A stretch of 64,000 nt of DNA from an uncultured Acidobacteriota bacterium (lineage in GTDB: Bacteria; Acidobacteriota; Thermoanaerobaculia; UBA5066; Gp7-AA6), in NCBI GenBank assembly GCA_963725095.1, contig CAVRXJ010000025.1, positions 407,949 through 471,948 on the forward strand, in the 5' to 3' direction. Made by a program: the position numbers and the translations under genes. Shown here piece after piece: positions 31,075-51,147 of the stretch. Within the stretch, counting starts at the first letter, position 1. Every line of letters starts with the position of its first letter. The notes beneath the pieces are model-generated. The model had not been told where the DNA came from. It saw only the letters and a list, made by a program, of their open reading frames with translations, and made no database searches.

Positions 31075-32140
31075 ATGGACGATCTTTCTCCTCCCTCGGC
31101 GCGCCGCCTGCTCGACGCGGCCTTCGGCCGGCCGGTCGACCGGCCTCCCGTCTGGATGATGCGCCAGGCCGGGAGGTACCTGCCCGAGTACCGGGACGTG
31201 CGGGCGAAGGTGTCGTTCCTCGACCTCTGCCGCTCCGTCGATCTCGCGGCCGAGGTCTCGCTCCAGCCGTTTCGCCGGTTCTCGCCCGACGGCGTGATCT
31301 TTTTCTCCGACATCCTGGTCCCCGTCGAGGCGATGGGGGCGCGGGTCGAGTTCGGCGATGCCGGGCCGCACCTTCCCGAACCGGTCCGCGACGCGCCGGG
31401 GGTCGCGGCCCTCGCCCGCTTCGACCCGGAATCGCGGATCGGCTTCACCGGCGACATCCTCGCGCGCCTGCGCCGCGAGGTGGGCGACCGCGCGGCGGTG
31501 CTCGGGTTCTGCGGGGCACCGTGGACCCTCGCGTCCTACCTCGTCGAGGGCGGCGGATCGAAGAGTTTTTCCGTCATCAAGGAGATGATGGGCCGCGACC
31601 GGGAGACGCTGCGGCGGCTGCTCGCCCTTCTCGCCGACGTCGTCGGCGACGTCCTTTCTTTCCAGATCGCCCGGGGCGCGCAGGCCGTTCAGGTCTTCGA
31701 CACGTGGGCGGGCGAGCTCGGCGACGGAGGACTACCGCGCGTGGGCGCTCCCGGCCGCCGCCCGCGCGATTGCCGGGATCCGGCGACCCGGCCGGCACGC
31801 CGGTGATCCTCTACGTGAACGGGTGCGCCCACCTTCTGGAGTCCATGGCCGACTCGGGAGCGGACGTGCTCTCGATCGACTGGCGCGTCCCGCTCTCGGA
31901 CGCGCGTCGGCGGCTGCCGAAGGCCACGCTGCAGGGGAACCTCGACCCGGGAGCTCTGCTCGGCACTCCGGAGGAAGTCTCGCGCCGGACCCGGGCGATG
32001 ATCGCCGCGACAGGCGGACGACGCCACATCGTCAACCTCGGGCACGGGGTGCTGCCCGGAGCGCGGCTGGAATGCGTCGAGGCCTTCTTCGCGGCCGCCC
32101 GCCAGACGGTCTCCGTTCCCGACGAGGCGGCGGTGCGCAC

Positions 32141-32144
<4 letters not shown>
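31075..32144 (+). CDS. hemE: uroporphyrinogen decarboxylase; frame breaks near ~31730 and ~31790
   Basis: [17 protein letters not shown]...[21 protein letters not shown]...[20 protein letters not shown] is in ORF 30418... The C-terminus [12 protein letters not shown]...LQGNLDP...HIVNLGHGV is in ORF 31038... Confidence 0.9.
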
Positions 32145-33522
<1,378 letters not shown>

Positions 33523-33524
33523 CC

Positions 33525-33577
33525 GAGGCCGCGCGAGAACTCGTTTGGCAGACGGACACGTGTGGTCGCGCGGCCTC
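33525..33577. repeat. perfect 12-bp inverted repeat (GAGGCCGCGCGA / TCGCGCGGCCTC) with a 29-nt spacer in the hemN-hemH intergenic region
   Basis: Read directly from the sequence: 33525-33536 is the exact reverse complement of 33566-33577. Confidence 0.8.
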
Positions 33578-33606
33578 GAAGAGAGTTTCAAAGTTCTATC
33601 GGCTTG

Positions 33607-34593
33607 ATGGCAGAAGAACGAGCGATTCTCTTTCTGCAGCTGGGGGGGCCGGAGAACCTCGACGAGGTCCCGGGTTTTCTTTACCGGCTCTTCTCGGACC
33701 CGGACGTGATTCGGGTTCGGCCGGCCATTCTGCGCAAGGCCATCGCGGCCGCCATCGCTTTCGGGCGGAAGAAGGCCTCGCGCGAGCTCTACCGCTCGAT
33801 CGGCGGCGGGTCGCCGATCCGGCGCCTGACGGAGGACCAGGCGCGCGGTGTCGAGGCTCTGCTCGAAGCGCGCGGCCGGCGCGCCACGATCCGAGCGGCG
33901 ATGAACTGCTCCAAGCCCATGGTCGAGGACGTCGTCCAGGAGCTCGCGGCCAGTGGCGTCCGGCGGTTTCTCTGCCTGCCGCTCTACCCGCAGTACTCCC
34001 TGACGACGACCAAGGGCGCCCTCGAGCGCGCGCGGCACGCGATCGCGCGGGAGGCGCCGGGCGCGTCGGTCACCGAAGTGGGCTCATGGCCGACCCATCC
34101 GCTCTTCGTCGAGGCTCACGCCGAGCAGATCGAGCGCGAGATCGAGCGGTTCCCCGATCCGCGGCCCGAGGCGGTGCACCTGCTCTTCTCGGCGCACTCG
34201 ATCCCGAAAAAGCTCGTCACCAGGGAGGGGGATCCCTACGCCTCGGAGGTCGAGACCTCCGTCCGCGCGATCCAGGAGCGGCTGGGCGGCCGATCGCCCT
34301 TCACGCTCGCCTACCAGTCCAAGCTCGGGCCCGTCGAGTGGCTCGGCCCTCCGACGCTCGGCGTCATCGGCGAGCTCGCGCGCCGCGGGCAGAAGCAGGT
34401 TCTGGTCGTGCCCATCGCCTTCGTCACCGACCACGTCGAGACCCTCTACGAGATCGACCAGCTGTTCGCGGAAGAAGCGCGCAGGGCCGGACTCCCGCAT
34501 TTCCGGCGCACCTCGGGCTTGAACAACCACCCGACGTTCCTCCGGGCCCTCGAAGACATCATCCTGGCGCAGCGCGGGTTCTGGGAGCCGTGA
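33607..34593 (+). CDS. hemH: ferrochelatase
   Basis: Intact ORF (track 33562..34593). The likely start is ATG 33607 (MAEERAILFLQLGGPE...). Also present: PLYPQYSLTTT...LLFSAHSIPK...YQSKLGPVEWLGP...VVPIAFVTDHVETLYEID. Confidence 0.9.
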   Translation: MAEERAILFLQLGGPENLDEVPGFLYRLFSDPDVIRVRPAILRKAIAAAIAFGRKKASRELYRSIGGGSPIRRLTEDQARGVEALLEARGRRATIRAAMNCSKPMVEDVVQELAASGVRRFLCLPLYPQYSLTTTKGALERARHAIAREAPGASVTEVGSWPTHPLFVEAHAEQIEREIERFPDPRPEAVHLLFSAHSIPKKLVTREGDPYASEVETSVRAIQERLGGRSPFTLAYQSKLGPVEWLGPPTLGVIGELARRGQKQVLVVPIAFVTDHVETLYEIDQLFAEEARRAGLPHFRRTSGLNNHPTFLRALEDIILAQRGFWEP

Positions 34594-35923
34594 GCCGAAC
34601 GGTCGTCATCGGCGGAGGGATCTCCGGCCTCGCGCGCGGGTACGCGCTGGCGCCGCAGGGCGTCGACGTCCGGGTTCTCGAGGCTTCGCCGCGGCCGGGC
34701 GGGGTCGTCCGCACGGAAAGGACCGGCGACTACCTCCTGGAGCTCGGGCCCAACACGGTGCGCCCGACGCGGGAGATCTGGGACCTGATCGGCGCTCTCG
34801 GCCTTTCCGAAGCGGCGCTCCTGGCACCGCCCGGCCTCCCGCGCTTCATCGAGTTCGAGGGCCGGCTGCACGCGCTGGCTCCCGGACCTCAGACGCTCCT
34901 GACGACCCGCCTGCTCTCGATCCCGGGCAAACTGCGCCTGCTGCGGGAGCCCTTCGTTCCGGGCGGGGAACGATCCGCGCGAGAGCGTGGCGGACTTCTT
35001 CGGCCGCCGCCTCGGGCGCGAGGTGGCGGAGCGGCTGGTCGCGCCCTTCGTTTCGGGTATCTGGGCGGGAGACGCGCACGCGCTCGCGGCGCGGTCCGCC
35101 TTTCCGATGCTCGTCCGCTGGGAACGCGAGCACGGGAGCCTCCTGCGCGGCGCGTTCGCTTCCCGGCCGCCCCGCGACCCCTCCCGTCCGAGGCTCCCGA
35201 GGGGGCTGCTCTCGTTCCGGGACGGTCTCGAGACGCTTCCACGGGCTCTCGCCGCGAGCCTCGGGCCGCGCCTCTCACTGAACACTCCCGTGCGCCGACT
35301 CAGCCGCCGACGGAGCGCGCTGGCGCGTCGAGACGGAACGGGAGTCGCTCGCGGCCGACCGGGTCGTCGTCGCGACGCCGGCCGCCGAGGCGGCCCGCCT
35401 GCTCGAAGACATCGACCCGCAGGCCGCCCGGGCCCTTTCCGAACTTCCTCAACCGCCGCTCGCCGTGCTCCACCTCGCCTGGCCCGCGACGGCCTTCCCG
35501 TCTCCGCTGTCGGGCTTCGGGCACCTGGTCGTGCCGACTGCCGACCGCCGCATCCTCGGCGCCGTCTGGAGCTCGTGCCTCTTTGCGGGACGCGCACCGC
35601 AGGGCGAGGTGCTGCTCACCGCTTTCGTCGGAGGCTCTCGCGACCCCGCGGCCGCGGCGCTCTCCGACAGCGAGCTGCTGGAGCTCGCCGCCCGGGAGCT
35701 TTCCGCTTCTCTCGGAGCCCGCTCCGCGCCGCGGCTCATCCGCGTGACCCGGTATGCCCGTGCGATTCCCCAGTACGACCTGGACCACGAGTCACGTCTG
35801 GAGGCACTGACGCAGGCCGAGCGCCGCAACCCCGGTCTGACGTTCATCGGGAACTACCGGGGCGGCATCTCCGTCGGAGACGTCGTTCGCAACGGCCTCG
35901 CGGACTCCGAACCCACCTCCTGA
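34590..35923 (+). CDS. hemY: FAD-dependent protoporphyrinogen/coproporphyrinogen oxidase (HemY family); frame breaks near ~34975 and ~35310
   Basis: GTG 34590 overlaps the hemH stop. Dinucleotide fold [16 protein letters not shown] is followed by LLELGPNTV, then [26 protein letters not shown] in ORF 34987... The tail AIPQYDLDH...[17 protein letters not shown] is in ORF 35465... Confidence 0.8.
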
Positions 35924-38248
35924 GTCTCGAATCGGCCGCGGCGCAGGCGCAGCGCGTTGCCGATGACCGACACCGAGCTGAAGCTCATGGCGGCGGCCGC
36001 GATCATCGGGCTCAAGAGCAGCCCGAAGACCGGGTAGAGGACGCCCGCCGCGATCGGCACGCCGAGCGGCGTTGTAGACGAACGCGAAGAAGAGGTTCTG
36101 CCGGATGTTGCGCATCGTCGCCGCGGCTAGAGGCGCCGCGCGCGCACGATGCCGCGCAGGTCGCCCTTGACGAGCGTGACGCCGGCGCTCTGCATCGCGA
36201 CGTCGGTCCCGGTTCCCATGGCGATCCCGACGTCGCGCCTGCGCCAGGGCCGGCGCGTCGTTGATGCCGTCGCCCGCCATGGCCACGACGCGGCCCTCGG
36301 CCTGAAGGCGCTTGACGACGTCGACCTTCTCGTCGGGCAGGACCTCGGCCACGACCTCGTCGATGCCGAGCTGCCGCGCGACCGCCTCCGCCGTCGTCCC
36401 GATGGTCGCCCGGTCACCATCACGATGCGAAGCCCTTCGCGGCGGAGCTCGCCGAGGGCCTCGCGCGCGTCGTCGCCTTGATCGGATCGGCGACGCCGAG
36501 CAGTCCCGCAGCCTGGCCGTCCACCGCGGCGAAGAGGACCGTCGCGCCCCTCGCGCGCGCAGCGCCTCGGCCCTCGCCGCCAGCGGCCCGGCGTCGATCC
36601 CGAGCTCCGCGAGGAGCGCCTGGTTTCCCAGCGCGACCCGTCGGCCGCCGACGCTGCCCGTCGACACCCTTGCCGGTCGTCGACCGGAAACCCGCGACGG
36701 CCGAGCAGCGCGATCCCGCGCTCTTCGGCCGCCGGCCACGATCGCGGCGGCGAGCGGGTGCTCGCTGCCGCGCTCGAGGCTCGCGGCCAGACCGCAGCAG
36801 CTCCGCCTCCGTCAGATCCCGCCGCCGGGACGACCGACGTCAGGCGCGGCTTCCCTTCGGTCAGCGTTCCGGTCTTGTCGACGACGAGCGTGTCGACCTT
36901 CTCGAAGCGTCTCGATCGCCTCGGCGTTGCGGAACAGGACGCCGAGCGTCGCCCCCTTGCCGGTCGCCACCATGATGGACATCGGCGTCGCCAGTCCGAG
37001 CGCGCACGGGCAGGCGATGATCAGCACCGCGACGGCGTTGACGAGGGCGTGGGCCAGCCGCGGCTCCGGCCCGAGCAGGCCCAGACGACGAACGTGAGCG
37101 ACGGCGACGGCGATCACCGCCGGAACGAAGTAGCCCGAGACCACGTCGGCCAGCCGCTGGATCGGCGCGCGGCTGCGCTGCGCCTCGGCGACCATGCGCA
37201 CGATCTGCGCGAGCAGCGTCTCGGCGCCGACCCGCTCGGCCCGCATCACGAAGGAGCCCGTGCCGTTGACCGTGGCGCCGATCACGCGGTCGCCCGGGCG
37301 CCTTCTCGACCGGGATCGACTCGCCGGTGACCATCGACTCGTCGACGGCGCTCGCTCCCCTTCGACGACGCCGTCGACCGGCACCTTCTCGCCCGGCCGG
37401 ACGCGCAGCCGGTCGCCGACCTGCACCTCGGCGAGCGGCACATCCTCCTCCGAGCCGTCCGCGCCGACGCGCCGCGCGGTCTTCGGCGCCAGGTCCGAGC
37501 AGCGCGCGGATCGCCGCGCCCGTGCGGCTGCGCGCCTGGAGCTCCAGGACCTGCCCGAGCAGCACGAGCGTGACGATGACCGCGGCGGCCTCGAAGTAGA
37601 CGCCGACCCGGCCCGCGTGGTCCCGGAAGGATCGGGGAAGAGGCTCGGACAGAACGTGGCGACGAGGCTGTAGAGATAGGCGACCGCCACGCCGAGCCCG
37701 ATCAGCGTGAACATGTTGAGGCTGCGGTGGACGATCGACCGCCAGGCGCGCATGGAAGAACGGCCAGCCTCCCCAGAGCACGACCGGCGTCGCGAGCGCG
37801 GCCTCGACCCAGCGCGACAGGCGGCGATCCGCGCAGGCGCAGCGCCGCCGGGCCCGATCGGCAGCATCTCGCCCATCGCCAGCACGAGGATCGGCGCCGT
37901 CAGGACCGCCGACGACCCAGAAGCGCCGGCGCATGTCGCGTCAGTTCCGGGTTCTCCTCCTCGTCCGCCGTCGACGACGCGAGGCTCGAGCGCCATTCCG
38001 CAGATCGGACAGTCCCCCGGCCCGTCGCGCACGATCTGCGGGTGCATCGGGCACACCCATGCGTTCCCCGTTCCCGGCGAAGGAGGCGGCCCGCCCCGCG
38101 GCGCGCCGGGTATCGCTCCGGGTCCGCTTCGAATTTCGCGCGGCACCCCGGGTGGCAGAAGAAGAACGCGCGCCCGTCCGCGTCGAGAGATCGCCGCCGC
38201 CGGATCCACCGACATGCCGCAGACGGGTTTCGTCGCCTCCGGGGTCAC
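35854..38248 (-). CDS. copA: copper/silver-translocating P1B-type ATPase with N-terminal TRASH/YHS-like and HMBD metal-binding modules; many frame breaks
   Basis: The CPC motif [14 protein letters not shown], plus TGE-region and DKTGT-region remnants, are in ORF 36812... [17 protein letters not shown] is in ORF 35792.. and [22 protein letters not shown] is in ORF 36127... The C-terminal TM segment is in ORF 35854... The N-terminus reads [13 protein letters not shown]...[19 protein letters not shown] and [26 protein letters not shown]. The GTG start overlaps the upstream stop. Confidence 0.8.
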
Positions 38249-39593
38249 ATCGAATGCCCGGCGGCCCCCCAGCGCAGGCGCAGGAAGAAGTGGCCCGACA
38301 GGGGAAAGTCCCCGTACACCGGCTTCAGGCTCGACGGGAAGGAATAGACGGTGATGTCGCCGGCCAGGCCCGTCTCCAGGCCCTCGACTGCGAAAGTCCG
38401 CAGATACCCGGCGGTGAACGCGAAGACGTTGGCAAACCGCGGCAGGCCCGGATCCGGCGGGTGCGGCTCGCCCTTGAACGCGAGCAGGTCGTAGTCCTTC
38501 TGAACGTACTCGGCTCGCGCAGTAGACCTGATCGCGCGCCGACATCTGCCAGGCACCCTCGAGCAGCCACGCGAAGCTCGACACCGGCTCCTCGCGTTTC
38601 TCCCCCAGAGCAGCATCGCCGCGACCGGACGATCGCCGGCGGCGCCGTATGAGACGGACGCCGTCGGCGGCGCACGTCGCCCGGCTCTTCCGCCTCGGGG
38701 TCCTTGAGAAATCCGTAGAAACCTGGCCCGACCAGCCGCCCCCGGGCGGATCCAGAGCCGACCCGACGCCGAGTCGAGCTTGCCGGATTCGATGTCCCAG
38801 CGGTCCTCGTCGGGCTCCGCGCCGTGAAAGACGGAGCCCTCGAGCGACAGCGCCTTCCACCCGTACCCGGCCGTGATGACGTCGACGGCGATGTGGGTCG
38901 AGTCCTCCCAGTGGTGGCCGAGCGGCGCCGTCGGGTTCTCGCCCGCGGAGGCCCGGTGCATGAAGGCCGTCGGGCCGAGCGCCGGGCTCGCCGACCGGCG
39001 CGAGCTGAATCCAGAAGGCCGAGCGCTCTCCGACCTGCTGGCGGTACGTCGCCGAGAGGTTCATGAAGAAGTCGTGCGGGTGCTGCCGGTCGACGATGCG
39101 GCTTCCCGTCGAACGTCTCGCCGGTCTGGAAGAGCTCCGGCGAGCCGCCTTCGGGAACGTCCCGGTTTCGAGCGAGTTCATCATCATCAGCGAGATCCGC
39201 CCGCCCCAGAGCGTCGTGCTGGACGTGGAGCATGTTCCAGTTGCTCGACTCGACGCCCTTCCTGCCGGACGGTCCGCCCTGCCCGTTGAAGGCGAGCCGC
39301 GCGACGCCGAGGTCCATCACGTGCCACTCCGGCATCTCCATCGCCGCCATCGGGGTCGTCCGGAACCATGCCCGTCATCAGCTCCATGTCGGATTGAAAG
39401 AGGTTGTGGCCCGAAGGTTCCGCCGGGTGCGAATCGGCCACGGAGTGAGACGGTGCTTCCGGCCAGCGCGGCTCGGCCGCCGGTCCGGCGTCGGCGTGGG
39501 CGTCGGGTGGTGCCCCTCATGCTGGGCACGGCCCGCCGCCGCCGCAAGCCAGCCGAGGCTCGCGAGAAACAGATCGCTCTTCCTCAAGGACAT
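38245..39593 (-). CDS. hypothetical His/Met-rich exported protein (possible outer-membrane barrel) linked to copper resistance; many frame breaks
   Basis: GGGGGAG RBS before ATG 39593 gives a signal peptide MSLRKSDLFLASLGWLAAAAG. His/Met-rich stretches follow: HEGHHPTPTP, MELMTGM, MAAMEMPEWHVM, MMMNS. Conserved-looking blocks are DRQHPHDFFM, PLGHHWEDSTHI and GYGWKALSLEGSVFHGAEPDEDRWDIE, with an aromatic C-terminal region. The pieces lie in ORFs 39378.., 39187.., 38325.., 36812.. and 38245... Confidence 0.5.
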
Positions 39594-39665
39594 TCTCCCC
39601 CGTTGCGGCGCAGACCGCCGCCACGGCGCCCGCACCATGCGGAGCGCCCCGACTCCCGGAGGGAA

Positions 39666-40100
39666 CTAGAGCCGACGGACGGAGGAAGGGATGCCGGAGG
39701 GAGGGCTCGCAAAAGGACGCGGAACGGGTGCGTAGCCGATCACGGGATCGGGTGTTTCGCCTGAACTCGCGGCTCCGGTCAGGACCGCGACAAGCTCCCG
39801 AGCCCGCTCAGTGCCGGCCGGAGCCGCCGCCTCGCGTGAGGCGGACGCCATCGCGCAGGGGTTCTCGTGCCGTTCACACGGTGCTCGATCGGGAGAAACC
39901 GGCTCCGGCACGCGCGCGCCCGCATGACAGGCACCCGGCTCGGGAGTCGCGGCCTTTTCCCGCGCCTCGGCCGCGTCGCAGGCGACACGGCAATAGAGAC
40001 CCGGCGTCGGGGTACGCACGAGAAGAACGGCCAGGGCCGCCGCGACGTTCAGGGTACGGCGCTTCACGCGATGCCGAAACACGTCGAGGCTTCCCCGCAT
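39666..40100 (-). CDS. hypothetical small exported Cys/His-containing protein
   Basis: This 144-aa ORF lies between the cytochrome c gene (7-nt gap) and the His/Met-rich gene. It has an N-terminal hydrophobic segment LNVAAALAVLLV, followed by C..AC, CH, C.RH..PC. I recognise no family, and frame integrity cannot be judged. Confidence 0.35.
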   Translation of the reverse strand: MRGSLDVFRHRVKRRTLNVAAALAVLLVRTPTPGLYCRVACDAAEAREKAATPEPGACHAGARVPEPVSPDRAPCERHENPCAMASASREAAAPAGTERARELVAVLTGAASSGETPDPVIGYAPVPRPFASPPSGIPSSVRRL

Positions 40101-40107
40101 TTCCGAC

Positions 40108-40672
40108 CTAGTTTCCGTTCGCTTTCGCAGAAGTCGCGTTTCCGTGGTGGTCAGCGCCCTCTACAGCCGCCTCGCTCAAGGCCTTCTCCTCTTCGGGCGA
40201 GAGCTCGGGAAGGTGCCGCAGGAAGGCGACGATCTTCCACACCTCCTCCTCCCGGTGTGTCGGCGAAAACGCCGGCATGCCGGTCATCCGGATGCCGTTG
40301 GCGACGATCCAGTACAGCTCGCCGTCGCTGCCGCTTCTGGACGCGCGGGAAGCGTCAGGTCCGGGGCCGGCGGGTTCAGGCCCTGCCCGTACTCGGCGGC
40401 GTCCACGCCCGGGGCGCCATGACAGCCGACGCAGTTCTCGCGGTAGTGCGAGAGGCCCTCGCGCAGGACTCTCCGGCGAAGAAGCCGACCGGGTTCTTCG
40501 CCGCCGAGCGCGCGGCGGGCGATCGAGCGATTCACGGCGAATCGCGCGAGCGACTCCTCGAGCTTCCCGGCGGCTGCGATCGCCGCGACGTTGAAGGAGC
40601 CGGACCAGAGGAAGAGACCGCCGCGACGAGCGCCAGGAGCAGGCCACCGAGGACGCCGGAGAGCCGCTTCAC
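40108..40672 (-). CDS. monoheme c-type cytochrome (exported); 2 frame breaks
   Basis: GTG 40672 gives VKRLSGVLGGLLLALVAA. The heme motif CVGCHG is in ORF 40284... The distal Met region ELYWIVANGIRMTGMPAFSPTHREEEVWKIVAFLRHL is in ORF 40108... Confidence 0.7.
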
Positions 40673-40706
40673 TCGCGGCTCTTCGCGTCCGACCGGGCCC
40701 GCCTCC

Positions 40707-41660
40707 TCAGGCATGGTTGCGGCTCGAGGCGTGACAGGTCATCTCGGCGCCGCGCTCCACCTGGATCGTCGTGTGGTCGATGCCGGCCTCTTCCTTCAGG
40801 AGCCGCTGCACGGCCTGGAGGATCTAGCCGCGCCCGCTCTCGGGCGCGGCCGAGATGTGGACGCTCGCCGAATGCAGCCCCGACGTGAGGGTCCAGAAGT
40901 GCAGGTCGTGCAGCGCTTCGACGCCCGGGGATCTCGAGGATCCGGGCGCGCAGCGTGCCGACGTCGATCTCTCCCGGCGTGCCTTCGAGCAGGATGTGCG
41001 CCGACTGTTTCAGCAGCGAGACGGCGCGCGGCAGGATGAACACCGCGACACCGATCGACACGGCGGGGTCGAGCCAGGTCCAGCCGGTGCGCGGAATCGC
41101 GATGGCCGCCGCGACGACGGCCACCGACCCGACCAGGTCCGTCAGCCACCTCCAGGTGCGCCGCCCGCAGGTTCAGGCTTTCGTTCGCGGCCGCTGCGAC
41201 AGAAGGCGCATCGCGATGAAGTTCGACGACGAGGCCCGCGACGGCGACGGCCAGCATGACGCCGCTGCGAACGACGACCGGTTCGCCGCAACCGGCCGAT
41301 CGCTTCGAAGAGCGATCCACCCCGACATGACGAGCAGGAGCTCGGCGTTGACGAATGCCGCGAGGATCTCGGCGCGGTAGAAGCCGAAGCTGTGCCGCCC
41401 GGTCGGCGCGCGGTCCGCCAGACCCATGGCCGCGTAGGCGAGGATCAGGGCGGCGATGTCGGCGAACATGTGCGCCGCGTCGGCGAGCAGGGCGAGGCTT
41501 CGCGAATAGAGCCCGCCCGCCGACCTCGAGCAGCAGAACGCCGGCCGAGAGCATGAGCGCCGCCCGCAGCCGCTGCCGCCATTGCTTGCGGTCGCCGGCC
41601 CCCGGACGGCTCCGCGGGCGATTGGGCGTGCGTGTGCGGGCGCGCGAGCTCCACCGGCAT
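40707..41660 (-). pseudogene. cation diffusion facilitator (CzcD-like) transporter, disrupted as assembled (several frame breaks plus an in-frame TAG at 40824-40826)
   Basis: SLALLADAAHMFADIAALILAYAA...RHSFGFYRAEILAAFVNA is in ORF 41173... [54 protein letters not shown] is in ORF 40669... The C-terminal domain reads [49 protein letters not shown] when translated manually. ATG 41660 directly abuts the upstream stop. Confidence 0.8.
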
Positions 41661-43689
41661 CTAGACCCGCTCGACCTGCGACCCGCGCGTCGTTGAAGCA
41701 GGCGCCGCCGCCGAGGTCGGTCAGGGTGTCGGGCGCGAGGGCCGAGGCGGTCGCGCCGTTGTCGGTGTTGTGGCTCCACAGGCCCTTCGGCAGGAAGACG
41801 ACGCCGGGCCGGATACCCTCGTCCAGGCGGGCGGGGCAACGCACCTCGCCGCTCCCGTTGAAGACGCGCACGGCCGCGCCGTCCGCGATTCCCCGCGGCG
41901 CCGCGTCGGAAGGGTGCATCTCCAGGGGGACGCGCGGGGCGTGGAGCTCGCCGAGCGTCGAGCTGATCGTGCGGTCGCTCGCAGGCGAGATCAGGGTGAG
42001 GGGGAATGCGTCGCCGGCCGGCTCCTCCCGGAAACCGTAGAGCCCGAGCGGCGCCTCGCGGTCGAGGTTCTCCGGAACGAGGTGGACCTTTCGGTCCGCC
42101 GTGCGAGGGAAGGCATCGACAAACTGCACGGGGTTCTTCCCCACCTCCGGGAAGGCGACGCCGTCGCGGGCCAGCGCCTTGCGCAGGGGTGCCCCCACAC
42201 GGCTCGACCCGAAGACCGCGTCCGTGATCTCCGCGGTCGTCTCGGGATCTCCCGGCCGCGCGACACCGGTCCGCCGGCAGAGGTCCGCGAACACCTCGTG
42301 GTTGGGCCGCGATTCCCCGACCGGCGGGATCACCGGAGGAGCCTCCTGGAGGGCGTACGCGCCGTAGCCGCGCGAGAGCTCGGTGCGCTCGAGAAAGGTC
42401 GTCGCGGGCAGCACGATGTCGGCGTAGAGCGCCGTGTCGGTCATCACGGGGTCGAACACCACCGTCAGAAGGTCCTCGCGCTCGAGGCCGCGGCGCACCT
42501 TTTCCTGCTCCGGCAGGGTCATCAGCGGATTGGCGTTGTAGACGAAGAGCAGCTTCGATCGCGGGCTTGCCGGAGAGCAGCGCCTCGCCCGCCTTGTTCA
42601 TGTTGATCTCCCGCGTCGGACGCCGGCGCCCTGCGCCGCGGCCGCCCGGGAGTCGAGGTCCCAGATCGAGGAGTTGCTCATCGTGTAGCCGCCTCCCCGC
42701 ACGCCGAACTTTCCGGCCACCGCCGGCAGCGCCAGGACCGCCGCCACGGCCGACCCGCCGTTGCGGTTGCGCTCGAGGCCCCATCCGCACCGCAGCGCCG
42801 CGGGGCTCGATTCGGCGTACAGCGACGCGAACCGCTCGATCTGCGAAGCCGCGACGCCCGAGGCCGACGCCGCGCGATCGATCGTCCAGGGCGCCGCCCG
42901 GCGGCGCAGCTCCTCGGACCCGGTCGTGTGCTCGGCGAGGAACTTCTCGTCCGCCCCGCCGTTTTCGAAGAGCCAGCGGATGACCGCGAGCGCGAGCGGA
43001 AGGTCGCCGCCGGGGCGCACCGCGAGGTGAAGGTCGGCGTGCTCGGCCAGCCGCGTGCGCCGGGGGTCGACGACGACGAGCTTGGCGCCCGCGCGCTGGG
43101 CGGCCTGGATGTGCGGCACGATGTGGATGCCGGACACGGAAGGGTTGACTCCCCAGAGGACGATCAGGCGCGCGTGCGCGTAGTCCTGGGGAGCGATCCC
43201 CGCCATCTTTCCGTAGAGGCCCGACGCCGCGCTGCTCGAGGGAGCGGCGCAGACCGTGCGGGCCAGCCGCGAAGCGCCCAGGCGCGAAAAGAGTCGGGCG
43301 TCCGTCGTGTCCTGCGAGAGGTACCCGTTGGACCCTCCATAGGACAGCGGCAGGATCGCCTCGCCCGCCCCGCGGGAGGCGAGGTCCCGGAGCCTGCCGG
43401 CGATCCGATCGAGCGCCTCGTCCCAGCTGCCCCGGCGAAACTCGCCGTCGCCCTTTCGTCCCGTCCGGATCCGCGGGTACCGCACGCGGCGGTCTCCGTG
43501 AACGTGTTCCGGGTACCGCCGCACCTTCGAGCAGATGTAACCCTCGGTCAAGGGGTTGACGCGACTGCCTCCCAGGGCGACCACCCGGTCTCCTTCCAGG
43601 CGAACCTCCAGGCTGCAGGCGTCGGGGCAGTCGAGCGGGCAGACGCTGGAGACCGTGCGGGAGTCGGGCTGGGTCGGAATGGCTTCCAT
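41661..43689 (-). CDS. molybdopterin-dependent oxidoreductase (MopB superfamily, no Tat signal seen); at least 3 frame breaks
   Basis: GGAGGA RBS before ATG 43689. The N-terminal Fe-S motif is VCPLDCPDACSL. Then LSYGGSNG...IVLWGVNPSVSGIH...KLVVVDPRRT are in ORF 42598... The section LFVYNANPL...VVFDPVMTDTALYADIVLPATTFLE and the C-terminal beta-barrel domain FPLTLISP...MHPSDAAPRGIADGAAVRVFNGSGEV are in ORF 41173... Confidence 0.8.
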
Positions 43690-43900
43690 GAACGTTGGTC
43701 CTCCGGCGTCTGATCGACACCGCGATGGTAAGCCCGACCGGGCCTCGGGGCCAACTGGACCCTCGGGGTGGCATTGGGAGGCCGGCGGATGGAGCCCCTT
43801 CGGGCCGGAAGCGAACCCCGTCGCCCGGCTGGGATGCTCCGACTCCACCCTCGACGCCGATTGCATCATCCCGGCGGCCGACGCTATCCTCTGTCGCACC

Positions 43901-44189
43901 ATGGGCGTGACGCCGGCCGTTTCGATCCACGTCTTCGGTCCGCTGCGCACGTACTGCGCCGGCGCTTCGAGGCTGTCGGTGTCGGCAGACACCGTGCGGG
44001 TTCTGCTGGCGGACCTCGAACAGAGGGAGCCCGACTTGTACCGCAACGTGTGCGACGAAACGGGCACGCTGCGCGGCCACTTGAACGTGTTCGTGAACTC
44101 GGACAACGTGCGCGATCTCGGCGGCGTCGACACGGCTCTGACAGCCGGGGGACGTGGTGACATTCCTGCCGGCGGTCTCAGGAGGTTGA
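43901..44189 (+). CDS. MoaD/ThiS-family ubiquitin-like small protein (C-terminal Gly-Gly); frame break at a G-run near ~44150
   Basis: MGVTPAVSIHVFGPLRTYCAG...LNVFVNSDNVRDLGGVDTAL lies within ORF 43556... After correcting one base in gccgggggac, the end reads AGDVVTFLPAVSGG*, which is the beta-grasp sulfur-carrier hallmark. Confidence 0.7.
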
Positions 44190-44191
44190 AG

Positions 44192-45305
44192 ATGGCGGAT
44201 CGGGTGGTTCTCACGATCGGGACGAGGAAGGGAGTGTTCGTCGCCGAAGCCGCGAAACCAAGGCGCCGCTTCGAGCTGCGCGGGCCCTTCGGTTCCGGAG
44301 TCCCGGTGTACACGACGCTCATCGACACGCGCGGCGCCCCGCGCCTGTACGCCTCGAGCTGCAATCCGTTCTTCGGCATGAAGCTGCTGCGTTCGACCGA
44401 CCTCGGGAAGTCCTTCAAGGAGACGAAGTCGGCGCCGGCCTTCCCCAAGGACGACGGACGCGCCCTGGCCAACATCTGGTCGCTCGAAGTCGGGGACGGC
44501 CGGAAGGAACTGTGGTGCGGGGTCGAACCGGCCTCCCTGTTCCGGAGTCCTGACGGCGGCGATTCGTGGCAGATGGTGCCCGGCATCAGCAATCACGAGC
44601 ACGCGCGCAAGTGGCAGCCCGGTGCGGGCGGCCTCTGCCTGCACACGATCGTGCGCGACGGCAATCGCGTGCACCTCGGGCATCTCGACCGGCGGCCACT
44701 ACGTCAGCGAGGACGGCGGCCAGACCTTCCGGGCCTCCAATCAGGGCGTCGGCGCCGGCTTCGCCCCCGATCCCTATCCCGAGTTCGGGCAGTGCGTTCA
44801 CAAGATCGCGCGGCACGAGGGCGCGCCCGGCCGGCTCTACATGCAGAACCACGGCGGATGGGCCGATTGGACCGGGCCCGGGGGACCGCGGCCGGACATC
44901 GGGGTGCTGCGCAGCGACGACTACGGCCGCTCCTGGCGATCGATCGCCAAGGGCCTGCCGTCGGACTTCGGATTCCCCATCGTCGTCCATCCGCACGACG
45001 CCGACACCGTCTACGTGCTGCCTCTCGAACCGGCGACGCGATCCTGCCCCGGCGGCGCGCCCGCCGTGTGGCGCAGCGAGAACGGCGGCGGCTCGTGGAG
45101 CCGCCTCGCGCGCGGGCTGCCGAAGAGGCAGAGCTACTTCACCGTCCAGCGTGACGCGATGGACATCGACCGGCTCAAGTCACCCGCGCTCTACTTCGGA
45201 ACGACGACCGGCCAGCTCTGGATCGGGAGGGAGGGCGGTGAAGAGTTCGACTGCCTGTTCGACTCGCTGCCGCCGATCCACAACGTCAAGGTCGCCGTCG
45301 TGTGA
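44192..45305 (+). CDS. BNR/Asp-box repeat beta-propeller protein (sialidase-like/Ycf48-like fold); frame break near ~44690
   Basis: AGGAGG RBS before ATG 44192. Five Asp-box-like motifs are present: RSTDLGKSF, RSPDGGDSW, VSEDGGQTF, RSDDYGRSW, RSENGGGSW. The pieces lie in ORFs 43556.. and 44622..45305. Confidence 0.7.
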
Positions 45306-45331
45306 GCGTCCGGCCTTCTTCGGACAGCCGC

Positions 45332-46436
45332 CTAGCGGATTTCCTCGAAGTAGCCGTGCAGCTCCCGCAGGGCGGGCCGATCGATCTTCTGGTCCCGCAG
45401 CGACTCCCGGAGCAGCTGCAGCGCGGCCATGCCCTCCGGAACCATGTGGAGCTCCTGGATGACCGGCAAGGCCTCGAGCACCGATTGCGTGGCCGCCTGC
45501 TCCTGCCCGAGCTCGAGGAGCAGGTCGGCGATCACGAGGTGGAGGGCCGCCACGTCGGCGCGCATTCCGATCTGCTCGAACTCGATCTGCGCGGCGCGGT
45601 ACGTCTCGATCGACTGCGCGAGGTTACCGGTCTCCCGGAGCAGCGTCGCGAGCCCCCACTGGACCTTGGCGAGGGCGACGCGGTCCTCGATCCGCCTCAA
45701 GACGGGGATCGCCTTCCGGGAGGCTTCGATGGCGCGCTCGGCGTCGCCCTGCATTCCGTAGAGGTGCGTGAGGTTGGCGTAGGAGGAAGCCACGAGCTTC
45801 TCGCTGCCGAGCGATTCGGCGTCGCTGCAGATCTGCAGGAAGACGTCGGTCGCCTCGGCGAGCTTCTCGCTCTCCAGGAGCGCGAGACCTTCGAGGAAAC
45901 GCGCCTTCAGCTCTTCCTCGGGCATCGGGAGCTTCCGGAAGCTCTGCACGAGCGACGGCGAGAGCTCGAGCACCGCCTCGAGATTCCTCTCCTCCAGGCG
46001 CAGGGCGAGCCTCTGGTAGGCCAGGCGAGACAGGTCCGCCACGGCGTTCATGGTGTGCCGGAAGCCGGCTTCCGACCGATCGAACCAGAGCCGCGCCTCG
46101 TCCCGCCGCGAGAGCTGGCGGCAGGCGGTGCCGCAGATCAGGGCGAACTCCCCGAGGAAGTATTCGCGCTCGTCGAACAGCCCGATCGGCCGGTCGGGAG
46201 TCAGGAGGAAGCGGTAGGTGAACTCGGCCTCGTCGCGAACGACCGCGGGCGTCGTGTCGAGCCGGTCCCGCAGCCGCGTCGCCAGCGAGAGCAGGACGTC
46301 GGGCTCTTCGAGATGGAGCTCTTCGGCCCGCGCCGCGCGCTCGGAGAGGGGCGCGCCGAGGATCCGATCGGCCGAGCCCTCCACTTCCTCGGGCGAGATG
46401 CCCGCGGCTGGGAAAGCGGATCACGCGCCCGACCAT
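45332..46436 (-). CDS. TPR-like helical repeat protein; frame break near ~46400
   Basis: ORF 45332..46384 (350 aa) is all-helical, with repeats such as ASSYANLTHLYGMQGDAERAIEASRKAIPVL and AKVQWGLATLLRETGNLAQSIETYRAAQIEF. The N-terminus MVGRVIRFP from ATG 46436 is in another frame. Confidence 0.6.
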
Positions 46437-46796
46437 CAGAGCTCCTCGTCCATGCGGGACTGGAGGTCCATGGCGAGGTCTTCGGGCTCCCGAGAGAGGA
46501 TGCGGTTCAACCCGTCATCGGGCGAGGGCTGTCCGGCGAGCTTCCAGAGCTGGAGGGATCGTCCGTACTGGCAGGCCGCCGAGAGCAGAGCGAGGCGAAG
46601 CGCCTTCGGCGTGCATCTGGGGCCCGCCGCCCCGCTTGGCCAGGCGGAGAAACCAGACGAGCAGATCCTCTTCGGCGCCGGCCGTTTCCTCGACCGTCAG
46701 CCGGTAGTGGGAGAGGAGGGTCGTGCGGACCACGACCTGGAGGCGCGCAAATACCTCGCGCGCCTCGTCATCCCGGACTGGAGAAATGCGCTGCAC
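46436..46796 (-). CDS. hypothetical small helical protein (weak resemblance to ECF sigma region 2 only); frame break near ~46620
   Basis: GTG 46796 gives MQRISPVRDDEAREVFARLQVVVRTTLLSHYRLTVEETAGAEEDLLVWFLRLAKRGG. After a frame change it continues ALRLALLSAACQYGRSLQLWKLAGQPSPDDGLNRILSREPEDLAMDLQSRMDEEL*. The stop overlaps the TPR gene start by 1 nt. Confidence 0.4.
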
Positions 46797-46893
46797 GGCT
46801 GGCTTTCTGGAAGTCTGAGCAAGGCTACACGACTCCCCGGAGCCGGTAAAGGCACGAATGTGGCGGTCGCGAAGGCCTGAGGCGCCGAGAGGG

Positions 46894-47022
46894 TTAGATC
46901 AGGTCGGGAATGACTCCGCCGATCTTGATCACGAAGCGCGTCGTCTTCTTCTCGGGACGGGACGCCTTCGGGACCTCGATCGGACGTTCGGGGAGCCGGG
47001 CAGGTGTGGTGGAAGAAGCCAT
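46894..47022 (-). CDS. 42-codon micro-ORF with a strong RBS
   Basis: AAAGGAGA lies 6 nt upstream of ATG 47022. The product is MASSTTPARLPERPIEVPKASRPEKKTTRFVIKIGGVIPDLI*. It forms the tail of track ORF 46894..47523 and sits in an otherwise non-coding, less GC-rich ~440-bp gap. Confidence 0.4.
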   Translation of the reverse strand: MASSTTPARLPERPIEVPKASRPEKKTTRFVIKIGGVIPDLI

Positions 47023-47039
47023 CGTCGTCTCCTTTCGCC

Positions 47040-47063
47040 AAAAACGCTCGGGACCTCCGAGCG
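47040..47063 (-). terminator. intrinsic-terminator-like hairpin (CGCUCGG-agguc-CCGAGCG followed by UUUUU) immediately 5' of the micro-ORF RBS
   Basis: Read directly from the sequence: 47045-47051 pairs with 47057-47063, and a 5-nt T-run on the minus strand covers 47040-47044. Confidence 0.35.
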
Positions 47064-47081
47064 GATCACTTCGAATCTGAG

Positions 47082-47100
47082 GGAATTGGATCACAATTCC
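47082..47100. promoter_or_regulatory. perfect palindrome GGAATTG-gatca-CAATTCC in the divergent intergenic region (candidate operator)
   Basis: Read directly from the sequence. It lies between the divergently oriented micro-ORF and M16 peptidase genes. Confidence 0.25.
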
Positions 47101-47238
47101 GCCCCGCCGGGTATCACCCAATTTGGAGGGGGCTGCAGGCGCCGGTGCCTCGGTCCGCATCTCAACTGCCTGAAAACGCGCGAATTGCGGTAATCTACGC
47201 CGGCCTTTGGCAGAGTCCTGCCGCGAGAGGAGTCTTCG

Positions 47239-50103
47239 ATGCTTCGAGTTCCCGCCGCCATGGCGATCCTGGCGCTGCTCGCCCCGCTGGCCGTCGCCCA
47301 GAGGAAGGGATCGCCGGCCAAGCCCGCTCAGACTCCCCGACGTCCTCCCCTTCAACGCCTCCGAGAAACTCCTCTCGAACGGCCTGAAGGTCATCGTCGT
47401 TCCGACCGGCTTCCCCAACATCGTCTCGCTGCAGATCCCCGTCCAGACCGGATCGCGCAACGAGGTGGAGCCGGGCAAGTCGGGCTTCGCCCACTTCTTC
47501 GAGCACATGATGTTCCGGGGCACACCGGACTATCCGCCCGCGAAGTACCAGGGGATCCTGACCCAGGTCGGCGCCCGCCAGAACGCCTACACGACCGACG
47601 ACTACACCAACTACCACACGACCTTCTCCAAGGAAGACCTCGACCTGATGCTCCGGGTGGAGGCCGACCGGTTCCAGCACCTCTCCTACGACGAGGCCGC
47701 GTTCAAGACCGAGTCGCGCGCGGTGCTCGGCGAGTACAACAAGAACAGCGCCAACCCGATCAACAAGCTCGACGAAGCCCAGCGGGAGAAGGCCTTCACC
47801 ACGCACACGTACAAGCACACGACGATGGGCTTCCTCAAGGACATCGAGGACATGCCCAACCAGTACGCCTACTCGAAGGAGTTCTTCCAACGCTGGTACC
47901 GCCCCGAGCACACGACGATCATCGTCGCGGGCGACGTCCAGGCCGAACCCGTCTTCGCCCTCGTCGAGAAGTACTGGGGAGGCTGGAAGCCCGGGACCTA
48001 CCGCGCCGCGATCCCCCAGGAACCTCCGGCCAAGGGGCCCGTGTCCACGCACGTCAGCTGGCCGAGCCCGACGCTGCCCTGGGTCAGCGTCGGATTCCAC
48101 TGCCCGGCCTTCTCCGACACCGAGAAGTCCTTCGCGGCGCTCGACATGCTCTTCGACCTCACCTTCGGCGAGACCTCCGACCTCTACAAGAGGCTCGTCG
48201 AGACCGAGCAGAAGGTCGACCAGATCTTCGCCGACAGCGGCGGCGCGCAGGATCCGTCGCTCGCGACGGTGTACGCGCGCGTCAAGAAGCTCGAGGACGC
48301 GGTCTACGTGCGCGACCAGATTCTCGCCGCCTTCGCCGCCGCGACCGCGACCCCGGTCGACGCCCGGCGCCTCGCCGACGCGAAGAGCAACGCCCGCTAC
48401 AGCTTCGCGCGGCGCCTCGACAACACGGAGACGATCGCCGCGAGCCTGGCGCGGTTCGTTCGCTACGACCGCTCCTACCAGACGCTCAACCGGCTCTACC
48501 GGGTCTACGCCTCGCTCGACGCCGGAAGACCTCCAGGCCGTCGCGAAGACCTACTTCACCGACGCCAACCTCGTCCTCGCGACGCTTTCGAGCTCGCCGA
48601 TGCCCGAAGCCATGGCGACGCTCCCGGCGCTCGCGACGTTCGCTGCCGAAGGCCGCCGGCCGGCGCGACGGACTCTGAACTTCCTCGTCCAGAAGACCGT
48701 GCTCCCGCAGCTGAACGTGAAGCTGCTCTTCACCGTCGGCTCGGCGTACGACCCGAAGGGCAAGGAGGGACTCTCGGCCCTCGCCTCCGCGATGATCGCG
48801 CAGGCGGGCTCCCGCGACCTCCGGATCGACGAGATCAACCGCGCGCTGTATCCGATGGCGGGCTCGTTCAACGACCAGGTCGACAAGGAGATGACGACGT
48901 TCACCGGCTCGATCCACCGGGACAACTGGAAGGCGTTCTTCGACATCGTCCTCCCGCAGCTTCTCGACCCCGGCTTCCGCGCGGAGGACTTCCAGCGCCT
49001 GAAGGACGCCCAGCTGAACGCGCTCACCGAGGATCTGCGCGCCAACAACGAGGAGGAGCTCGGCAAGGAGCAGCTGCAGGCGACCCTCTTCGCCGGAACT
49101 CCCTATGGCCATCCCGTCCTCGGCACCGTCGCCGGAATCCAGTCGATCACGCTCCAGGACGTTCAGGACTTCGTCCGCGCGGCGTACACGCGCTCGGCCC
49201 TCACGATCGGCGTCGCCGGAGACGCGCCGGAGGAGCTGCTCGCCCGCCTGCGCACGGAGCTCGCGACGGCTCCCGGCCGGGCCCGCCCTGCCCGAAGCCC
49301 GAGGGCGTCGTCGCGCGAAAACCCCGAGGCGTGCAGGTCGAGATCATCGAGAAGGACACCCGGGCCACCGCGATCTCGCTCGGGCAGCCGACCGCCGTCG
49401 TCCGCTCCTCGCCGGACTTTGCCGCCCTCTGGGTGGCGCGCACCTGGCTCGGCGAGCACCGCTCCTCCGTCTCACACCTGTACCAGCGGATCCGCGAGAC
49501 GCGCGGCATGAACTACGGGGACTATGCCTACATCGAGGCCTTCCCGCGCGGGATGTTCCAGTTCTTCCCGGACCCGAACCTCGCCCGGCGCGCCCAGATC
49601 TTCGAGATCTGGATCCGGCCGGTCATGCCGGACAACGCCCACATGGCGCTGCGCATCGCCGTCGCCGAGCTCGACCGCCTCGTCGCAGAACGGGCTCTCC
49701 CAGGAGGACTTCGAGAACGACGCGCGGCTACCTGATGAAGAACGTCTACGTCATGACGGCGACGCAGAACCAGCAGATCGGCTACGCGCTCGACTCGAAG
49801 TGGTACGGGATCGGCGAGTTCACGACCTACATGCGGGAGCAGCTCGGCAAGCTCACGCGCGAGGACGTCAACCGCGCCATCCGGAAGCACCTCTCGGCCG
49901 GCGACCTCTCGGTGGTCATCATCACCAAGGATGCCAAGGGCCTCAAGGACAAGCTCGTGGCGGACACGTTCTCGCCCATCAAGTACGACGGCGAGAAGCC
50001 GCAGGAGCTGCTCGACGAAGACAAGGTCATCGGCGCGCGCAAGCTCGGGATCACCCCGGAGAACGTCAAGATCATCCCCGTCGACGACGTGTTCGCGCGG
50101 TGA
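47239..50103 (+). CDS. secreted fused double-M16 (pitrilysin family) zinc peptidase, ~950 aa; at least 4 frame breaks
   Basis: GAGAGGAG RBS and a signal peptide MLRVPAAMAILALLAPLAVAQ. The active half carries GFAHFFEHMMFRGT (the HxxEH motif) in ORF 47207... The second M16-like half, lacking HxxEH, reads LNVKLLFTVGSAYDPKGKEGLSALASAM in ORF 48600... The tail is in ORF 49105..50103. Confidence 0.85.
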
Positions 50104-50127: not shown

Positions 50128-51147
50128 TCAGCCTCGGGGCCGCCGCCCGGTCGTCAGCACCGCGGCGCCCTGCACCTCTCCCCGCTTGATGCGACGGCAG
50201 CGCCTGTCCCGCTTCCGCGAGCGGGTGGACCTCGGTCTCGGCCCGCACGGGGATGCGCGCGGCGAGCTCGAGGAACTCCTCGGCGTCGCGCCGCGTGTAG
50301 TTCATGACGCTTCGGACCGTGCGCTCGCCGTAGAGCAGCGGATAGTCGAGGGCGGGGATGCGGGCTCATGTGGATCGCGTTGACGGCGACGGTTCCGCCG
50401 CGCTCCGAGGCGCGCGAGCGCCGCGCGCACGACCTCGCCGGCGGGCGCGAACGTGACCGCGGCGTCCATCGGCGATTCCCGGGTCGTCGTCCGTCTCGCC
50501 GGCCCACTGCGGCCCCCATGCGCAGGGCGAGCGCGCGGTGGTGCGCCTCGCGCGTGAAGGCGTAGACCTCGCAGCCCCAGTCGAGGGCCACCTGGATGGC
50601 GAGGTGCGCCGACGCGCCGAATCCGAACAGGCCCAGGCGCCCCCCGGGCCGGACCTCCGCGAGCCGCAGCGCGCGGTAGCCGATGATTCCGGCGCAGAGG
50701 AGCGGGGCCGCGTCCACGGCGGAAACGCCCTCCGGCAGGCGGTAGACCCACCGGGCGTCGGCGGTCATGAATTCCGCGTAGCCGCCGTCGCGGTCCTTGC
50801 CCGGTGAAGGCCGCGCGCTCGCACAGGTTCTCCCGTTCCGAGAGGCAGAACCGGCATTCGCCGCAGGTCGACGCCACCCAGCCCACGCCGACCGCGTCGC
50901 CGATCGAGAAGCCTTCGGCTCCCTGCCCAGCCTCGACCACCCGGCCCGCCGCCTGATGGCCCGGCACCACCGGGAGCCGCGCGGGGACCTCGCCCTCGAC
51001 GATGTGCAGGTCCGTGCGGCAGACGCCGCACGCCTCGATCTCGAGCAGCGACTTCTCCCGCGCCCGGCGCGGGGCTCGCGGAAGATCGACGCCCTCGAGC
51101 GGCATGCTCTCGGCCGGGCCGGCCCGCCGGAGGACCTGTGCTCTCAT
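50128..51147 (-). CDS. zinc-dependent alcohol dehydrogenase family protein; at least 4 frame breaks
   Basis: EACGVCRTDLHIVEGE...VPGHQAAGRV...CGECRFCLSERENLC is in ORF 50302... GLFGFGASAHLAIQVA is in ORF 50154.., and the C-terminus is in ORF 50072... Confidence 0.8.

Follow-up and report, generated by a model that had tools for sequence, protein, structure and literature searches.

The stretch analysed here, 64,000 nucleotides from an uncultured Acidobacteriota bacterium (GenBank assembly GCA_963725095.1, contig CAVRXJ010000025.1, positions 407,949 to 471,948; hereafter the window), carries six minus-strand genes between 43689 and 35854: a MopB-type molybdoenzyme, a cation diffusion facilitator (CDF), a monoheme cytochrome c, a small exported Cys/His protein, a His/Met-rich porin-like barrel and a CopA-type ATPase. 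We read this locus, with moderate confidence, as a zinc and copper efflux cluster that has an orphan molybdoenzyme for a neighbour, and not as a system of redox-coupled export. The step from MopB to the CDF would be a lineage-specific inherited pair that arose from one ancestral juxtaposition, ancient rather than recent. The CDF, whose family is established, would export divalent cations, probably Zn, Co or Cd, to the periplasm, and CopA, as its family membership and motifs show, pumps Cu(I) from cytoplasm to periplasm. The small Cys/His protein and the His/Met barrel may bind periplasmic copper and pass it across the outer membrane or exclude it there, and the cytochrome c would be a membrane-anchored, monoheme protein that faces the periplasm. 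MopB itself would be a bystander, co-expressed with the CDF and with a job unrelated to metal export, presumably the same job that it has in those Acidobacteriota, Planctomycetota and other bacteria in which its neighbours are housekeeping genes.

In a collection with one genome per species, tblastn confirmed relatives of MopB at 593 places; the 80 best of these were analysed together with L001, a contig of a related ENA assembly. Among these loci a CDF followed MopB only in L001-L009, L011 and L015, with a cytochrome c next in most. Elsewhere the neighbours of MopB were RarA/MgsA, two Iso_dh genes (isocitrate/isopropylmalate dehydrogenase), Omp85 with a TamB-like protein, YggX (Iron_traffic), IspG, NDH-2 and an M1 peptidase (PepM1). 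A neighbour-joining tree was built from the C-terminal half of 89 MopBs, including ones from a second survey made from the CDF side. All 30 MopBs of one Thermoanaerobaculia-centred clade were linked to a CDF, and none of the 57 assessable others had a CDF or CopA nearby; many of these 57 are labelled Thermoanaerobaculia too. The CDF-side survey, a metagenome scan, gave 80 loci, 42 with a CDF at 56% identity or more and 38 with a more distant one. MopB lay directly upstream in 35 of the 36 assessable loci of the closer set (the exception, L118, had no MopB; the other six of the 42 lay too near a contig end to tell) and in 0 of the 38 distant loci. The linkage thus recurs throughout its own subclade and was not seen beyond it.

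Within that clade the pair is stable and appears to be translationally coupled, since adjacency is nearly complete and the junctions are tight: of 42 measurable MopB/CDF junctions, 20 overlapped as ATGA or GTGA, eight as TGATG or TAGTG, and six had gaps of at most 16 nt. These observations speak for a functional coupling of the two proteins, in which MopB would act on a metal, a metalloid or a metal complex by a cytoplasmic redox step whose divalent product would leave through the CDF. The pair also persists while its upstream neighbour (PepM1, a tetratricopeptide repeat (TPR) protein or others) and the genes downstream vary, and MopB has no assigned substrate of its own. We nevertheless consider such coupling unlikely. 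The same enzyme is never found beside a metal pump in the 57 species-level loci outside the clade, and its joins to other genes are equally tight. In a sister clade RarA/MgsA, an AAA+ protein associated with DNA replication, lies directly 3' of MopB on the same strand (L010, L012, L013, L017, L020, L021, L024, L026, L034 and L074, at about 12000 in each), with gaps of -4, -1, -1, 2, 5, 10, 12, 16, 31 and -38 nt, eight of the ten falling between -4 and +16; between PepM1 and MopB the overlap is 4-40 nt. Close joins to unrelated genes, shared across a clade, are therefore normal for the MopB gene in these genomes. In addition, there is no obvious match between the products of molybdenum bis(pyranopterin guanine dinucleotide) (Mo-bisPGD) enzymes and the substrates of CDFs. 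CDFs move divalent cations, and the known substrates of Mo-bisPGD enzymes are mostly oxyanions or small neutral molecules.

The sequences of linked and unlinked MopBs pointed in the same direction. The two groups had 101 columns conserved at 90% or more in common, and one conserved column differed (P413 versus Q). Identity between linked and unlinked MopBs was 59%, about the same as the 61% within the unlinked group, and the two look like one and the same enzyme. The idea that the linked MopB is a neofunctionalised paralogue was rejected on the basis of this single discriminating column. The original prediction had offered two explanations for the locus, an export-coupled redox step that acts on a metal or metalloid and a chance juxtaposition of two modules. 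The first was not supported, in view of the unlinked loci, the near-identical conserved columns, the RarA/MgsA and PepM1 joins and the occurrence of the module without MopB; the second fits better, with the amendment that the juxtaposition is ancient and inherited.

Three loci have the CDF module and no MopB: L084 (1865-7194), L166 (494-9681) and L167 (589-6395). In each, the order is PepM1, CDF, cytochrome c and barrel, and PepM1 and CDF overlap by 13 nt; L166 also has a YHS protein, a DUF4198 protein and CopA. These loci raise the question of whether the true partner of the CDF is the exported M1 zinc metallopeptidase, with the CDF supplying zinc to the periplasm and MopB having been inserted or lost; the window copy would then have lost PepM1. 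The order PepM1, MopB, CDF in L001, L006-L009, L015, L114, L115 and L119 is consistent with this, as is the N-terminal signal or lipoprotein-like sequence of a representative PepM1, which was recognised by inspection. We regard a PepM1-CDF unit as very improbable all the same, given that the window, L002, L005 and L082 lack PepM1 and have a TPR protein ahead of MopB, and that tight junctions are generic in these genomes.

Several points weigh against an efflux cluster with a bystander molybdoenzyme. The order MopB-CDF is kept in the clade down to 56% CDF identity while both flanks change, and at 28 of the 42 junctions the two genes share 1 or 4 nt, which is the look of a selected operon with translational coupling. 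The MopB family has no assigned function, and a metal-related substrate is possible. The roles proposed for the barrel, the small protein and the cytochrome are drawn from genomic context and sequence composition, and should be taken as provisional.

Intact copies of the cluster were found in relatives. L005, from a Thermoanaerobaculia metagenome-assembled genome (MAG) with 81% MopB identity, had the six genes unbroken and in the order of the window, with a 1-nt overlap (TGATG) between MopB and CDF and a 4-nt overlap between CDF and cytochrome c. The metagenome contig L105 also had all six genes in this order. Other relatives differed in the genes that lie between the CDF and a convergent ABC-2/hemY-hemH-hemN block, and the small protein, the barrel and CopA varied among them. 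L082 had the first five genes and then a convergent CusCBA where CopA lies in the window. L001 had an FAD oxidoreductase, VIT1, PLD and Usp between CDF and cytochrome c, and no barrel or CopA. In L006-L008 only a cytochrome c followed the CDF.

In the window, where G+C is about 70% along the full length, the minus-strand frames between 35.7 and 43.9 kb were translated and six coding regions were seen in succession, with frame jumps in five. Peptide starts were mapped at 43689 (MEAIPTQPD), 41660 (MPVELARPH), 40672 (VKRLSGVLGG) and 40100 (MRGSLDVF), and the signal peptide of the barrel at 39593. The junction between MopB and CDF reads ...GTC GAG CGG GTC TAG ATG CCG GTG GAG..., the TAG occupying 41663-41661 and the ATG starting at 41660. 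The MopB frame reaches ...QVERV-TAG only past a frame break near 41690; we take this junction to be correct because the resulting end, ...QVERV*, agrees with the ...ERV* end of the relative L085. The remaining gaps, derived from the coordinates, are 34, 7 and 72 nt, followed by a 4-nt overlap. Peptide mapping and Pfam thus upheld the six co-directional genes of the original prediction together with their coordinates and junctions, and the gene identities that it had proposed were confirmed by Pfam, NCBIfam and motifs.

It is plausible that the six genes are transcribed together as one unit. They share a strand, no gap exceeds 72 nt, and no terminator-like site was seen at any junction: a terminator scan gave three weak consensus matches, all inside coding sequence, against 2.7 expected from shuffles. 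The intergenic region at 43690-43900, between MopB (minus) and a divergent ThiS-like gene (plus), is the presumed promoter region of the cluster, a role suggested by its position. A promoter scan that included this region did not find a sigma-70-like consensus, and the scan is probably ill-suited to this phylum. A search of 35000-47500 against Rfam gave no molybdenum cofactor (Moco) or NiCo (czcD) riboswitch and no other element at E values up to 1.

MopB (43689-41661, minus, about 675 aa) belongs to the molybdenum/tungsten (Mo/W)-bisPGD (MopB/DMSO reductase) superfamily, as indicated by its domains and a protein metal ligand. An intact orthologue matched the Pfam families PF00384 (Molybdopterin, 130.5 bits), PF01568 (Molydop_binding, 74.8) and PF04879 (Molybdop_Fe4S4, 40.4), and the same three domains were recognised in the window fragments. 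The motifs include an N-terminal 4Fe-4S site, CPLDCPDAC...C, and a Cys metal ligand in RTVCAAPS (43260-43237); in an alignment with T. kivui FdhF (..RLCHAPT..) this Cys falls on the ligand Cys, and it is invariant among 25 homologues. When the intact orthologue was scanned against NCBIfam, no cut-off was reached: formate dehydrogenase alpha (TIGR01591) scored 220.6 bits against a cut-off of 666, DmsA/YnfE 192 against 778, BisC 180 against 1018, PhsA 174 against 694, NasC 171.8 against 1100 and NasA 120 against 1000. MopB was accordingly not assigned to the formate dehydrogenases (FdhF/FdhH), where in addition to the low score it has Ala in place of the His that follows the Cys/Sec ligand, nor to the assimilatory nitrate reductases (NasC/NasA/NarB), whose equivalog cut-offs it does not approach, nor to the periplasmic or respiratory types (DmsA/YnfE, PhsA/PsrA, NapA, ArrA, TtrA). 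These scores bore out the earlier suggestion that it falls in no well-characterised family.

The closest solved structures were FdhF of the hydrogen-dependent CO2 reductase, acetylene hydratase, other formate dehydrogenases and the polysulfide/thiosulfate reductase PsrA. The best PDB match had an E value of 3e-45, with the alignment mainly over the N-terminal half. No twin-arginine (Tat) signal was seen in the window MopB or in 24 homologues, and only about 16 residues precede the first iron-sulfur (FeS) Cys in the 25 homologues, in agreement with the cytoplasmic location that had been suspected earlier. No gene for an FeS or membrane partner subunit was found in the 81 loci. By these features, MopB is a cytoplasmic, Cys-ligated, orphan member of the superfamily. 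Two MopB copies lay far apart on one Holophagales MAG contig (L019 and L022; CAVUHL010000003.1), and the family is therefore not strictly single-copy.

The CDF (41660-40707, minus, Pfam Cation_efflux) has a His-rich N-terminus, HMFAD in transmembrane helix (TM) 2 (41478-41458) and LEV..D in TM5 (41173-41147). An intact orthologue scored 264.6 bits with the superfamily model TIGR01297 (cut-off 82.35), 136 with PF01545 and 41.9 with PF16916, and membership of the CDF family is clear. ZitB was the best equivalog, and its cut-off of 408 was not reached (237.3 bits). In an alignment with ZnT8, the whole MopB-linked orthogroup has Glu at the TM5 site where ZnT8 has His220. This substitution was rejected as the mark of a special CDF, as 13 of the 38 more distant CDFs, which are unlinked to MopB, have Glu there too.

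CopA (38248-35854, minus, Pfam HMBD and E1-E2_ATPase) is a P1B-1 type Cu(I)/Ag(I) ATPase. The window copy has the motifs CPC (37015-36983), YN (36088-36071) and MSFSS (35988-35965; MSFSSVSV), and the intact orthologue of L005 scored 584.7 bits with TIGR01511 (cut-off 397). The equivalog model for E. coli CopA was not reached (638 versus 1316). HMBD was seen in the window CopA; YHS was seen only in the L005 orthologue, at 25.5 bits, below the Pfam cut-off of 30.3.

The cytochrome (40672-40108, minus, Pfam Cytochrome_CBB3/Cytochrom_C) has an N-terminal TM helix (VKRLSGVLGGLLLALVAAV), the heme-binding motif CVGCH (40433-40419) and GMPAF, and is a class-I monoheme domain. On inspection it appears to be anchored in the inner membrane, with the heme domain beyond the TM anchor. 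Direct electron transfer between MopB and the cytochrome is unlikely, because MopB is cytoplasmic and the heme domain would lie on the far side of the anchor.

The small exported protein (40100-39666, minus, 144 aa) and the barrel (39593-38245, minus) had no Pfam or NCBIfam match. The small protein was recognisable in eight loci at 22-35% identity, and a protein database search returned no homologue. It has a signal peptide, invariant CxxxC, CH, C(P/R/E)xH and C, and a C-terminal SVLRL/SVRRL; the window copy ends in SSVRRL. The barrel family is large, with more than 7,800 homologues at E values up to 1e-5, all of them unnamed ("hypothetical protein") and without a Pfam domain. An AlphaFold2 model of the barrel, made with 48 sequences, had a predicted TM-score (pTM) of 0.77 and 16 strands. 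Foldseek matched this model to OmpF, Omp32 and BpsOmp38 with probability 1.0 and target-normalised TM-scores of about 0.6-0.7, the E values for OmpF and Omp32 being about 1e-9, so the protein is predicted to have the general porin fold, a 16-strand antiparallel beta-barrel. Membership of PcoB/CopB was not supported, the intact His/Met protein matching no Pfam family at E values up to 0.1. Invariant residues lie in three places: a Met-rich N-terminal stretch (LFQSDM.LM.GM...) and two long loops (QHPHD.FM and MHRAS.G.N...P..HHW.DS.HI). Cu(I) sites typically show His/Met chemistry of this sort. The barrel's neighbours, in the loci that were examined, were CopA, CusCBA, a YHS protein or a monoheme cytochrome.

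The last of these neighbours suggests another role for the second half of the cluster. The barrel and the adjacent monoheme cytochrome c could form an outer-membrane and periplasmic redox unit for metal, for example for Cu(I) or Fe(II) oxidation, which the pumps would feed or protect; in function such a unit would correspond to porin-cytochrome systems such as Cyc2. A monoheme cytochrome c adjoins the barrel in every barrel locus but L083, a second cytochrome c directly follows it in L165 and L168, two loops carry invariant His and Met, and a multicopper oxidase gene was not recognised in the cluster. We find this decidedly doubtful, in that the barrel itself lacks CXXCH, the cytochrome appears from its N-terminal TM helix to be held in the inner membrane, and the association may be plain synteny beside the hem gene cluster. 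In the two loci with a second cytochrome (L165 6475-7417, L168 6454-7423), that protein is monoheme and is accompanied by a conserved 108-aa protein without a Pfam match, a hint that the association of barrel and cytochrome recurs.

The original prediction had described all six genes as frame-broken. Five are; the small open reading frame (ORF) at 40100-39666 reads through. Frame changes were counted by ungapped tblastn with intact orthologues, as gapped tblastn merged frames and hid breaks. A count of frame switches from G+C at third codon positions (GC3) across the window was too coarse for close breaks and mixed in real gene boundaries, and was replaced by the tblastn frame maps. We counted about three changes in MopB, at least five in the CDF, one or two in the cytochrome, about eight in the barrel and about 13 in CopA. 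Genes outside the cluster were affected as well: hemY had two, an M16 peptidase three and an ADH-like gene of 1 kb six, and none was seen in the upstream TPR gene (1.05 kb). Because housekeeping genes in the window are broken too, and not the metal genes alone, we attribute the breaks to assembly or sequencing indels. The pattern is typical of an unpolished long-read assembly, and ORF-based annotation of the contig will be fragmented. Frame breaks are frequent and uneven across the window, for example at 50146-51075 (minus), 47333-50100 (plus) and 34590-35902 (plus).

The breaks could also be taken to mean that the cluster is a decaying pseudogene array whose arrangement has no present function, and their concentration in CopA and the barrel would suit that. 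This is extremely improbable: besides the broken housekeeping genes of the same window, GC3 and coding signal are intact, MopB is likewise split in two pieces on L001, and the orthologous loci are intact.

At its 5' side the cluster is bordered by a divergent ThiS/MoaD-like gene (PF02597, end ...AGG) and a BNR/Sortilin-like repeat protein at 43901-45305 (plus), between the TPR gene and MopB. This pair is not at this position in L002, L005 or L082, and the presence of a sulfur-carrier-type (ubiquitin-like) gene beside a molybdoenzyme may be a coincidence. Among the closest relatives, the place directly upstream of MopB is taken by a conserved 120-aa protein without a Pfam match and a TPR protein of about 365-405 aa (window 45332-46796, minus; L005 8426-9891; L082 1-1410), which could be a regulatory pair. 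The gene caller used on the relatives' loci miscalls the strand of the TPR gene and misses the small gene. At the other side, the 3' end of CopA overlaps the 3' end of the convergent hemY (35854-35923), and the metal cluster abuts a hemN-hemH-hemY block (31823-35923, plus) in the window and in most relatives. In one study, c-type cytochrome assembly is described as a key target of periplasmic copper toxicity (PMC4600104).

A literature search found no description of the MopB-CDF unit or of the His/Met porin family, and the cluster is best filed as a metal-efflux arrangement so far undescribed in the literature found, with three poorly known families. The analysis delimits these: an orphan cytoplasmic Mo/W enzyme whose relatives occupy over 590 places in the one-genome-per-species collection, mostly in Acidobacteriota; a very large family, so far unannotated, of porin-like barrels lined with His and Met; and a small periplasmic protein with CxxxC, CH and CxxH. 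Many soils are dominated by Acidobacteriota, whose handling of metals bears on metal cycling and on the stress that copper and zinc cause in agricultural soils. If the reading proposed here is right, the locus is also cautionary. A stop/start overlap together with synteny across the clade would then have been no sign of a common function, since in a sister clade RarA follows this MopB at equally tight junctions; the MopB-RarA/MgsA adjacency can serve as a useful negative control when function is deduced from synteny.

We allow a small but appreciable chance that the locus holds more than this. Either the clade has drawn an orphan molybdoenzyme, elsewhere a housekeeping one, into a translationally coupled unit with an exporter of the CzcD type, both acting on the same metal, or the His/Met porin and the monoheme cytochrome c form a new outer-membrane route of copper (or iron) oxidation or release in thousands of soil bacteria. 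A coupling of MopB to the CDF, if true, would make this a redox-assisted form of metal export not seen before.

Compared with known systems, MopB is most like FdhF/FdhH, acetylene hydratase and NasA/NasC/NarB. It shares with these enzymes the three-domain architecture, a similar size, the N-terminal 4Fe-4S site, Cys at the ligand position, the absence of a Tat signal and the absence of dedicated partner subunits nearby. It differs in that its sequence similarity to any solved structure is distant and its scores are far below every NCBIfam cut-off. FdhF has His after the ligand Cys/Sec where this MopB has Ala, and the FeS motif is CxxCxxxC in monomeric cytoplasmic Mo/W-bisPGD enzymes and CxxxCxxxC here. 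The CDF resembles the CzcD/ZitB exporters in passing the superfamily model, in HxxxD of TM2, in its ZT_dimer domain and in its His-rich N-terminus, and differs from them in its score below the ZitB cut-off, in the TM5 Glu and in a gene that abuts the MopB gene.

The barrel shares with OmpF, Omp32 and BpsOmp38 a predicted 16-strand beta-barrel fold; it differs in its identity of about 10%, in its invariant His/Met loops and in its Met-rich N-terminal extension. Unlike general porins, it is also constantly found beside metal pumps and a cytochrome c in the genome. The barrel and the cytochrome may be counterparts, in a general way, of PcoB/CopB and of the cytochrome-like CopJ of Cupriavidus; the barrel departs from PcoB/CopB in its lack of a Pfam match and in the general-porin fold predicted for it. 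The cop, pco and cus clusters differ in that no multicopper oxidase, CopC/D or CusF was recognised here. They are like this cluster in having a Cu(I) ATPase with CPC, YN and MxxSS, an outer-membrane barrel whose N-terminus is rich in Met and His, a c-type cytochrome and a small exported protein with Cys and His, and in one relative CusCBA stands beside the module at the very place of CopA.

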